Below the pieces are notes generated by a model. The model saw only the letters and a list, made by a program, of their open reading frames with translations. It had not been told where the DNA came from and made no database searches. From a bacterium (GTDB lineage Bacteria > UBA8248): a DNA stretch of 64,000 nucleotides. Where the stretch lies: positions 1,920,001 to 1,984,000 of the forward strand of contig CBDBEV010000001.1 of the NCBI GenBank assembly GCA_965204535.1, read 5' to 3'. Below, piece after piece: positions 58,946 to 60,941 of the stretch (position 1 is the first letter of the stretch; every line of letters begins with the position of its first letter). The position numbers and the translations under genes are program-made.

Positions 58946-59360
58946 GTCGTATCCTTCGCGGCTGGAAAACGGGTCCGTGGCGGATCCGATACCTCGGTTC
59001 GACCCCCTCGCAACGGAGCGTAAGTTTCTCACACCCTTTTCGGCCCCTCAAGAAAAAAGGCCCGCGAAGGATATCGACGGGCGAAAACCGACAAGCCTGC
59101 GGCATTTTCAGGCGAATATCGTGGTTTCGGGGGTTTTGGGTGCGAAAATCGCACTTTTTTCGGTGCATGAATACATTTTTGTTGACGAAAGAAACGCAAC
59201 ATATATACTTTTCTGAAAGCGTCTTCGTCTTATTTCGAGCGGAGGGACTGCAAGGCAAACACTCTCTCCCGAGCAAAGCGGCCGTGGCACCCAGGCAGTG
59301 GAGAACGAGGGGACACCACCTCGTTATCGGCCAGGGCCATATTCTGGAGAACTCGAGGCA

Positions 59361-59648
59361 GTGAAAACCGTAGAGGAAGTACGCGAAGAGATTGTCAGAA
59401 AAGCGAGCGAGAATGAGGCATTCCGCGCCGAATTGGTGGCCGACCCCAAAATCGCCATTGAAAAGGAATTGGGAGTCACCATTCCCGAGGGGTTCAAGAT
59501 CGGCGTGCACGAAGATAACATCATGAGCATCAACCTGGTGCTGCCGCCGGCCGAGTTGAGCGAGGAGGATCTGAGCGCCGTCGTGGCCGGAGCACAGATG
59601 TGGCAAGAATTCGCCAACGCCTGGAACAGCTTGAACCAGAACTCCTGA
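59361..59648 (+). CDS. NHLP (nitrile hydratase-like leader peptide) RiPP precursor, proteusin type
   Basis: IVRKA..NEAFRAELVADPK.AIEKELG..IP....I.VHED....LVLPP leader; ELSEEDLSAVVAG double-glycine-type site; core AQMWQEFANAWNSLNQNS. Confidence 0.9.
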   Translation: MKTVEEVREEIVRKASENEAFRAELVADPKIAIEKELGVTIPEGFKIGVHEDNIMSINLVLPPAELSEEDLSAVVAGAQMWQEFANAWNSLNQNS

Positions 59649-59843
59649 TACGATATATCCAAATAGAGCAACAGTCCGTTCGGTCGGTTCGCCGAAAAAC
59701 CCCGGGAAGGGGATGGTTCGGGACGCCGCTTTGCGGGTTTGAACCGCGTTGCGGCCCGCTTCGCCGAAGGGAGGCCGGGGTGCCGCGCTTGCTCATCGCC
59801 GCCTTGCCCCCAATGTATGCGTCCCGCTCGGAAACAGGGTTCG

Positions 59844-60941
59844 ATGATGTCTGAGAATTTCGGGGACGTCTTTCCAAGGTTGCGCCGCTTTGTTCCATCG
59901 GCCTTACTCAACGGCCCATGGTGGGACCGCCTGGTGGAGCGCGTCGGTGAACTTCCGAGTTGGCTGACTCTGAATTACGCGGCCTTCGAGTTTCGGCTGG
60001 GAGACTCTGCGCCCGCCGCCGATTATTTCGTCTCGGTTGCGCCGGGGCGTCCGTCCATGGAGTATTACGTTCGTCTGGGCGAGGCCGCAAAACCCGACTC
60101 CGCGGAGGCGGCTCTCGGCCGCGTCTACGCTCTCATGAATGGAGCGGGTCCCCCTTCCGAATCATCAATCATCGGCTGGTTCAGGGCGTCGATGCTCGAA
60201 TACGACATCGCGGAGGTCCCCCCGGACCTGCGCCCGGCCCCGGGCGTGTTCCTGGCGCTCAAGCCTCAATCCGAACTGGATGAAGACGCCGCGGGCTCAA
60301 GGACACCCCACCGCCTGGCCGCCACCATAGCGAACGCGGTCGGGTGGGAGGAGGACGAGGCGGAGCGCCTCGCCGTGGAGCGGGCCTTCGCCGCCTTGCC
60401 CGGAAGTGGCGTGGTGGATCAGATTGGCGCCGCCCCCGAGCGCGGGCCGCGCCTGATTCGCCTGATCGTGGACGGGTTGAAACTGCGCAATGTGCCCGCA
60501 TTCCTGAAACGGCTGAAATGGGATGGCTCCACCCGGAAAGTGATGGACACGCTGGAGGAGATGCGCGATATGACGCCCGTCTTCCGAATGGCGCTGGACG
60601 TCTCCGCGCACGGCGTGGGGCCGCGCCTGGGTCTTGAGATGTACAGGCCGAGAAGCCCCTCGGACCTCGACTACTGGCTGACTTCGGGGCGCAACGCCTG
60701 GCGTCCCGTCATGAACTATCTAGAAGATATGAAATGGTGTCTGCCGGAGAAGGGGGACGGCCTGCGGGCGTTCCCGGGAATCGAGAGACTCTTCGAGGAA
60801 AAGGGCATGTCCATCCTGTACAAGGGAATCAACCACTTCAAGCTCTCGATCGAGGGCGACGCCGTAGAAGCCAAGGCCTACGCCGCCCTCGCCTACTTCC
60901 GGCTCTACGCCGACTCGGAGGGTGAATCGGAGCCGGGGTGA
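59844..60941 (+). CDS. Hypothetical protein, candidate RiPP maturase (possibly an ABBA-type prenyltransferase)
   Basis: 365-aa ORF immediately after the precursor; FEFRL, LEYD, PGVFL, LDV...PRLGLE, NHFKL...EAKAY motifs. The ORF is solid; the function is inferred. Confidence 0.6.
   Translation: MMSENFGDVFPRLRRFVPSALLNGPWWDRLVERVGELPSWLTLNYAAFEFRLGDSAPAADYFVSVAPGRPSMEYYVRLGEAAKPDSAEAALGRVYALMNGAGPPSESSIIGWFRASMLEYDIAEVPPDLRPAPGVFLALKPQSELDEDAAGSRTPHRLAATIANAVGWEEDEAERLAVERAFAALPGSGVVDQIGAAPERGPRLIRLIVDGLKLRNVPAFLKRLKWDGSTRKVMDTLEEMRDMTPVFRMALDVSAHGVGPRLGLEMYRPRSPSDLDYWLTSGRNAWRPVMNYLEDMKWCLPEKGDGLRAFPGIERLFEEKGMSILYKGINHFKLSIEGDAVEAKAYAALAYFRLYADSEGESEPG

Follow-up and report, generated by a model that had tools for sequence, protein, structure and literature searches.

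A two-gene cassette of an NHLP-leader peptide and a predicted ABBA-type prenyltransferase, a candidate minimal system for peptide prenylation

Several described systems lie close to the locus that is the subject of this report. MppC, encoded in the mpp cluster of Moorena producens, is an ABBA enzyme that depends on a leader; of two tryptophans it geranylates one, at the indole C5 position, and it needs an L(X)4L motif (PMC12715784). NctPC, of the steromaze system (Hubrich et al., Chem 2024), is presented in the available part of PMC13290415, and cited in PMC13647313, as an ABBA-barrel peptide Trp prenyltransferase of low similarity to the cyanobactin enzymes that is coupled to an MstE-like cyclase. 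In the srp clusters of marine sponge microbiomes, according to the accessible text of PMC10858898 and 10.1101/2023.06.09.544420, SrpE carries the core LCCCW, SrpC is a YcaO protein and SrpI a brominase. Here we analyzed a 64,000-nucleotide stretch of bacterial DNA (the window; contig CBDBEV010000001.1 of assembly GCA_965204535.1, positions 1,920,001 to 1,984,000 of the forward strand, lineage UBA8248), in which the gene of an NHLP-leader precursor for a peptide made by the ribosome and modified after translation (a RiPP) is followed by the gene of a predicted ABBA prenyltransferase. The first gene has 95 codons (59361-59648) and the second is a frame of 365 codons (59844-60941); both lie on the plus strand, spaced by 195 bases. 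Compared with the MppC system, this cassette has no LanM and no Cys, an NHLP leader, a linear helical core with an internal Trp, and two genes in all. Its features are:

59182 to 59209, plus strand: candidate sigma70-like promoter (TTGACG-N16-TATACT) with 10 of 12 consensus matches, 0.7 such sites being expected by chance
59346 to 59350, plus strand: ribosome-binding site GGAGA of the precursor gene, conserved in 16 of 16 orthologous loci
59361 to 59591, plus strand: NHLP leader of 77 amino acids with an L66-x4-L71 motif and an Ala-Gly cleavage site of the double-glycine type (TIGR03793 and alignment)
59592 to 59648, plus strand: core peptide of 18 amino acids plus stop; the Trp81 codon (59601-59603) is variable, the Trp88 codon (59622-59624) invariant
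59847 to 60941, plus strand: predicted ABBA/PT-barrel prenyltransferase of 364 amino acids (365 from the ATG at 59844), from AlphaFold2, Foldseek, VIA-align and conservation

We consider it probable, at roughly 60%, that the enzyme binds the leader, ionizes a prenyl diphosphate, probably with the help of Mg2+, and attaches the prenyl group to the Trp88 indole, after which a C39 transporter cleaves the peptide and exports an uncyclized lipopeptide. An earlier sequence-only reading of the window had proposed a prenylated lipopeptide made by a stand-alone enzyme, and overall that interpretation is supported by the results below. The claim that the product would be new was overstated, as leader-dependent ABBA peptide prenyltransferases have been published, namely MppC (PMC12715784) and, by the available part of PMC13290415, NctPC.

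The protein encoded at 59361-59648 matched TIGR03793 over residues 4-77 with 64.1 bits, against a cut-off of 50.9. The leader ends in ELSEEDLSAVVAG, its L(X)4L motif reads L66-SEED-L71, and its cleavage site is the Ala-Gly variant, with G77 invariant among 28 aligned precursors. The core, AQMWQEFANAWNSLNQNS, with a calculated monoisotopic mass of 2137.93 Da when unmodified, has Trp at core positions 4 (Trp81) and 11 (Trp88) and no Cys, and its helical hydrophobic moment was 0.403, compared with a mean of 0.166 in 20,000 shuffles (p = 0.005). Translation, the TIGR03793 match and the shuffle test thus confirm an NHLP precursor with an 18-residue, Cys-free core, two Trp and an amphipathic pattern, as had been read from the letters. 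A precursor start at 59298 was rejected, because the ribosome-binding site and the N-termini of homologues favor 59361.

Strict proteusins of the polytheonamide type have a radical S-adenosylmethionine (rSAM) epimerase or methyltransferase, or a LanM, in their clusters. The label "proteusin-type" that had been given to the locus holds for the leader and no further, since none of these enzymes was found among the scanned open reading frames (ORFs) of the window. This family scan covered 76 ORFs at E≤1e-8, plus six further proteins at the locus; the 76 were all 71 ORFs of at least 190 amino acids that end before 47,100 and 5 of the 11 between 47,100 and 57,000, where the other six overlap genes that were scanned. 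It found no rSAM, YcaO, LanM, halogenase or C39 protein. The statement that no other maturase or C39 exporter is present therefore stands for the scanned ORFs of the window and does not extend to the genome, where an exporter with a C39 peptidase and an ATP-binding cassette (C39-ABC) lies 855 kb away. In the window genome (hereafter G000) a single member of the enzyme family and a single NHLP precursor were found. A second NHLP-like match in it was a 273-residue protein resembling the alpha subunit of nitrile/thiocyanate hydratase and hence no precursor, and neither a Nif11 precursor nor a Trp halogenase was found in G000.

The enzyme gene had been described as an unannotated 365-residue ORF without a maturase motif. 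It indeed has no Pfam or NCBIfam match at E≤1; its length needs correction. At least two of the 16 orthologous loci have ACG in place of the first ATG (59844), which makes 59847 the probable start and 364 residues the probable length. A start at 59739 was rejected, the ribosome-binding site and homologue N-termini favoring 59847. Sequence and profile searches of the PDB, made with the window protein alone and with alignments A1 and A3, gave no significant match, and the profiles Trp_DMAT (PF11991), PTase_Orf2 (PF11468) and DUF5838 (PF19156) did not match the window protein. Language-model neighbors alone linked it to described ABBA families (0.88-0.89), which we took as a lead only.

The fold of the protein was predicted with AlphaFold2 from 139 sequences. 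The model, of high confidence (pLDDT 93.3, pTM 0.92), consists of five helix-pair/beta-hairpin repeats that form a ten-stranded barrel. The available text of PMC3485228 defines the ABBA superfamily by five alpha-beta-beta-alpha repeats and a ten-stranded antiparallel barrel. When the model was compared with 48,161 chains by VIA-align, 19 chains scored Z≥8 and all were ABBA prenyltransferases (Z 11.2-16.3; root-mean-square deviation, rmsd, 4.2-4.9 over 253-307 residues), the next fold scoring 5.6. The top matches were indole enzymes: MpnD at 16.3 (rmsd 4.6, 300 residues), DMATS1 at 15.9, FunA at 15.7 and CymD at 15.4. Foldseek matches displayed at E≤0.001 were solely ABBA prenyltransferases, with TMq of 0.37-0.53. 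The predicted structure thus has the ABBA/PT-barrel fold, as had been proposed beforehand, and each of the short repeated motifs that had been taken for beta-strand lies on a predicted barrel strand. The model is a beta-barrel and not the all-helical isoprenyl diphosphate synthase fold of ComQ and PalQ.

In the alignment of 139 sequences, which has a mean column identity of 20%, ten residues stood out: E49 (98%), D60 (99%), E119 (91%), D121 (99%), R200 (99%), R206 (92%), H331 (97%), K333 (99%), K344 (97%) and Y346 (99%), all on or beside barrel strands. In ABBA enzymes the diphosphate site is formed by basic residues and tyrosines, and an Asp marks Mg-dependent members (PMC3485228, in its accessible part). 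R200, R206, H331, K333, K344 and Y346 are candidates for such a site in the window enzyme. It could be argued that the barrel has some other chemistry, with the peptide or with a different diphosphate as substrate, or that it is a non-catalytic chaperone that binds the leader, the peptide being helical and unlipidated. The enzyme does lie outside all described ABBA sequence families, with similarity at the level of fold alone, and its pocket is unusually acidic (E49, D60, E119, D121, D252, E265). The near-invariant Arg, Lys, His and Tyr on the barrel strands speak against this, as does the repeated proximity of family members to class II terpene cyclases, which require a prenylated substrate, and we regard such a role as decidedly unlikely. 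The window enzyme is very likely an ABBA-fold RiPP maturase.

We then asked how the cassette is distributed. The enzyme profile matched in 16 of 41 genomes: G000, 15 of the 22 others of its genus and none of 18 more distant ones. The precursor is present in the same 16 of 23 genus genomes, directly upstream of the enzyme in all 16 orthologous loci, and the 7 genomes without the enzyme also lack the precursor. Pooled ratios of nonsynonymous to synonymous substitution (dN/dS) were 0.21 for the leader and 0.44 for the core, from 15 full-length precursors, and 15 sequences of the enzyme gave 0.25. Of the 15 orthologous loci that have sequence upstream, 14 show the TTGACG hexamer at one shared position of the alignment; the remaining locus, L016, has a second precursor upstream. 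The cassette genes are a real, conserved pair under purifying selection. These data bear on the view that the enzyme prenylates a small molecule such as free Trp or another indole, the NHLP peptide being no substrate, or that the cassette is a decaying relic. The nearest solved structures do use small indoles, and another RiPP cluster, of the srp type, has been deleted from G000. Nevertheless, none of the 23 genus genomes was found to have one of the two genes without the other, the frames are intact with dN/dS of 0.21-0.44, the promoter-like site and ribosome-binding site are conserved, and NHLP genes neighbor the enzyme in five other phyla, which makes either version very improbable.

Within the core, Trp88 was kept in 16 of 16 orthologues, inside A-W-N, whereas Trp81 was kept in 9 of 16; Trp88 is therefore the likely prenyl acceptor. 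It is the sole aromatic residue invariant in all 16, and it sits in the most conserved half of the core. A functional pairing of the two Trp, which lie seven residues apart, by a crosslink or by double prenylation was discarded as a rule for the family, since Trp81 is absent in 7 of 16 orthologues. An active, leader-dependent prenyltransferase might instead act on an acceptor that is not, or not only, Trp88: Trp81 or Phe84 where present, Ser or Asn, or both Trp. The orthologues that keep Trp81 are in keeping with this, and so are family members that pair with Trp-free, Tyr-containing cores (L085, see below); the invariance of Trp88 and its place in the core tell against it, as does the fact that the top structural neighbors are indole prenyltransferases. 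We consider it unlikely.

Beyond the genus, the enzyme profile collected 3,881 clusters at 50% identity (E≤0.001); the family, unnamed in Pfam and NCBIfam, spans at least eight phyla in this analysis. Named genomes were scanned with one conserved motif, which gave 21 loci from Chloroflexota, Pseudomonadota, Binatota, Spirochaetota and Acidobacteriota, and one from the window's genus. An NHLP gene lay within 6 kb in 17 of the 21 loci, with up to 12 in one locus. Among the 53 distinct cores there, which come from related genomes and are not independent, so that the count is descriptive, 49 contained Trp, compared with about 10-11 expected at 1.3-1.5% Trp; it was the last residue in 29 and within the last three in 37. 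The expectation that homologues co-occur with RiPP precursors is thus borne out by NHLP and Nif11 neighbors rich in Trp. A quick, bootstrap-free tree of 42 rows, used descriptively, places the cassette enzymes with homologues from Chloroflexota (SH-aLRT 99).

A 320-residue protein adjoins some homologues, either free-standing (L039, L068, L071) or fused to an NHLP-like domain. By profile it matches class II terpene cyclases, and by fold drimenol synthase and MstE with TMq 0.63-0.71 (model pLDDT 67); single-sequence PDB searches with cyclase candidates gave no cyclase match, whereas the profile and fold searches did. Because such cyclases need a prenylated substrate, their presence next to the enzyme supports prenyl transfer in the family.

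Among plasmid records, a distant family member found four homologues and the window protein one (23.6% identity, 86% coverage, E 2e-12), a full-length homologue in a Pseudanabaena cluster with LanM and Nif11, where Trp is the last residue of the core. LanM clusters that also have Nif11 or NHLP precursors contain three of the four (from Pseudanabaena, Nostoc and Azospirillum), and these three keep E49, D60, E119, D121, R200, R206, D252, H331, K333, K344 and Y346. The fourth is broken and adjoins a Nif11 gene. The Azospirillum B510 cluster (L086, NC_013855.1) has eight NHLP precursors, six of them ending in Trp, with a family member and LanM. The Nostoc cluster (L085, NZ_CP117772.1) has LanM and a PoyD-type epimerase and is a candidate for prenylation of Tyr or of a non-aromatic residue. 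In a LanM and Nif11 cluster (L084:6004-7797, NZ_CP112877.1), the first 369 residues of a 597-residue protein annotated only as 2OG-Fe(II) oxygenase make up a complete domain of the prenyltransferase family. Among 7,995 candidates no fused form of greater length was found, a weak negative as they covered only 756-2155 amino acids, and no relatives of the enzyme were found in viral contigs.

At two loci (L062, L066), 11-12 NHLP precursors are arrayed around an ABC exporter and one or two genes of the enzyme; their cores are diverse, and most end in (D/N)W. Nearly identical cores turn up both in an alphaproteobacterium and in a Binatia genome, a pattern suggestive of combinatorial libraries and of horizontal transfer. 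Within the window's own genus, one member (G010, L036-L041) has an expanded RiPP repertoire, with 9 enzyme-family and 36 NHLP-like matches, several of them broken, one locus with a cytochrome P450 and one with a free-standing cyclase.

The exporter of G000 belongs to the remains of an srp-type cluster. In the genus, 11 srp-type loci end in an enzyme paralogue that is 31-33% identical to the window enzyme. The operon order is C39-ABC, ABC, NHLP-fused cyclase, desaturase-like protein, YcaO and paralogue, and the operon converges on an NHLP precursor that ends in LCCCW in 10 loci and LSCCW in one; a flavin halogenase gene precedes the exporter in the loci whose upstream DNA was fetched. This arrangement suggests that the LCCCW product also bears a cyclized isoprenoid. 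Operons of this type were seen at L031:8-10456 (G002:C1:3146000 onward), L032, L033, L034, L049, L050 and L077, with an NHLP-domain-fused class II terpene cyclase of 433 residues and a fatty-acid-desaturase/GlnE-like fusion of 798 residues. A sponge habitat for the organism is suggested by analogy with the srp-type clusters of its relatives; public records label close homologues "Nitrospinae bacterium".

The remnant in G000 lies at about C2:1,119,000-1,125,700 (region C2:1118900-1125800; L051, L053). Through an 8-kb deletion YcaO, the desaturase-like gene, the paralogue and the precursor have been lost together with most of the cyclase. A second deletion took away the 5' part of the halogenase gene, whereas the exporter trio survives intact: C39-ABC, the ABC protein that accompanies it and a short gene of the membrane-fusion-like kind. 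G000 gave no YcaO match by tblastn and no Trp_halogenase match. For class II terpene cyclase it gave no match with a query that finds 11 of 23 genus genomes, the genome being 95.7% complete, and the only trace of the cyclase is a leader-like remnant of 37-40 codons. The description of a stand-alone enzyme is therefore correct in that no cyclase is fused to it and none was found in G000 with the query used. A full-length NHLM C39-ABC was present in 14 of the 16 genomes with the cassette, and in one more cut by a contig end, compared with 1 of the 7 without it. In one genome (G003; L078, G003:C127:1-9978) the cassette lies directly upstream of halogenase and exporter genes on a single 10-kb contig, an adjacency that may be a rearrangement or an assembly join. 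It is plausible, given this distribution, that the cassette peptide is processed in trans by the distant C39-ABC pair.

The following sequence of events can be proposed. The leader would be recognized through a structured nucleus and the L66-x4-L71 motif, by analogy with MppC. A prenyl diphosphate would be held by R200, R206, H331, K333, K344 and Y346 and then ionized, with D60, E119 and D121 probably binding Mg2+, and a Friedel-Crafts alkylation would attach the prenyl group to the indole of Trp88 in the linear 18-residue core. The donor is probably C10-C20, and G000 has two polyprenyl synthase genes that could provide longer donors; because no cyclase was found in G000, the chain would stay uncyclized. 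Cleavage after Ala76-Gly77 and export would fall to the NHLP-type C39-ABC pair. Such a pathway would yield an amphipathic lipopeptide that associates with membranes; the role of a conserved signal or surface molecule is likelier for it than that of a member of a diversified toxin library. A broader proposal, which we put forward tentatively and at somewhat less than even odds, is that the cassette is the minimal form of a very large family of leader-guided prenyltransferases that lipidates linear NHLP peptides without any other maturase. On this proposal, a lipopeptide prenylated on an internal Trp in an amphipathic helix would have been fixed and vertically inherited in this genus as a ComX-like signal made by an unrelated fold, with the exporter of a deleted cluster kept; the srp product would also be a terpene-peptide hybrid, prenylated and cyclized in addition to its known thiazolines and bromo-Trp.

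Several observations weigh against prenylation of Trp88 in this peptide. The structural similarity is distant, with 5-14% identity at TMq 0.37-0.53 and rmsd 4.2-4.9, and a common fold by itself proves no function; PatF, which is among the structural matches, is presumably an inactive homologue. Thirty divergent family members, too, gave no match to Trp_DMAT, PTase_Orf2 or DUF5838. At 4 of the 21 named-genome loci no NHLP gene was found within 6 kb, and halogenases could explain part of the Trp enrichment in the cores. Most family cores have Trp at or near the C-terminus, whereas Trp88 is followed by seven residues. The Nostoc cluster L085 has a full-length homologue with Trp in none of its five listed cores and Tyr in four, and the enzyme family is therefore not Trp-only. 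MppC favors a macrocyclized core, which the window core cannot form. As to export, one genome with the cassette (G005) had no exporter detected in its 350 contigs, and the membrane-fusion-like gene of the exporter encodes just 183-192 residues, so that the exporter may lack competence.

If prenylation of Trp88 is correct, site-specific lipidation of peptides and proteins would gain a simple tool, in the form of one small, leader-guided enzyme that acts on an internal Trp in a linear peptide. The two-gene size makes the cassette directly testable in E. coli, and a single positive assay would give a function to thousands of proteins now labelled hypothetical. On the same reading, the cryptic srp peptides of sponge microbiomes should carry an isoprenoid. 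In its general outline the chemistry, an ABBA enzyme with a long leader and Trp, is already published, which limits the surprise.

The surroundings of the cassette were also inspected. It is divergent from a xanthine/uracil-type permease, and its downstream neighbors are a cytochrome c' and then an amidohydrolase. The same permease lies upstream in 14 of the 16 orthologous loci, the other two stopping there at a contig edge. All three flanking genes were rejected as parts of the cassette, the downstream ones being absent from several orthologous loci. Elsewhere in the window, positions 14445-23980 hold a subtilase (Peptidase_S8), a STAND-like ATPase and type III restriction-modification genes, a probable defense island, and a tRNA-SeC gene lies at about 25499-25595 (G000:C2:1945499-1945595). 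Two short repeat families of 120-150 bases, resembling repetitive extragenic palindromes or miniature inverted-repeat transposable elements, have dozens of copies across G000 (seen against L031:10780-10950 and about 17150-17360).

The cassette can finally be set beside the known systems. With MppC it shares an ABBA-type enzyme of similar size beside a long-leader precursor of the Nif11/NHLP class, the L(X)4L motif and two core Trp, one of which is geranylated in MppE (PMC12715784; PMC11791876, in its available part). Homologues of the window enzyme sit in cyanobacterial clusters with LanM and Nif11, MppC itself being compared by description only. MppC differs in preferring a 7-residue core macrocyclized by LanM, and the mpp cluster also holds a halogenase, a terpene synthase, arginases and more (PMC12715784). 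With NctPC, likewise compared by description in the accessible text, the likeness is that paralogues of the window enzyme adjoin MstE-like cyclases, and the difference that the window enzyme has no fused cyclase, with none found in G000. Because LanM, Cys and cyclase are absent, the cassette was classed neither as a lanthipeptide prenyltransferase system nor as a steromaze system. The srp clusters, as far as they are described in the available part of PMC10858898, resemble it in the NHLP leader and Trp-containing core, and a paralogue 31-33% identical adjoins YcaO and an LCCCW precursor; the window core has no Cys, however, the cassette has no YcaO or halogenase, and the srp-type modifying genes of G000 are deleted or broken. 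The enzymes of the DMATS/CymD type (MpnD 4yla, DMATS1 8day, CymD 6os3, 6-DMATS 6zry) are the best structural matches, at Z 15.2-16.3, but with 6-12% identity and no Trp_DMAT profile match, and they act on small molecules rather than on leader-bearing peptides. The cyanobactin F-family (PagF, PirF, LimF) prenylates ribosomal peptides with a common ABBA barrel (Z 11-12), but is leader-independent (PMC12715784), and the window enzyme has no DUF5838 match. ComQ and PalQ also prenylate peptide Trp, but resemble trans-isoprenyl diphosphate synthases and have another fold, according to the available part of PMC13290415. Our literature search found no description of a stand-alone NHLP and ABBA cassette, although Hubrich 2024, Nguyen 2021 and the list of clusters mined with MppC may cover the family. 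Taken together, the cassette is likely a stripped-down, stand-alone version of chemistry that was first reported from cyanobacteria in 2024-2025. What is particular to it is a single fixed core with an invariant internal Trp, and an exporter retained from a deleted srp-type cluster.

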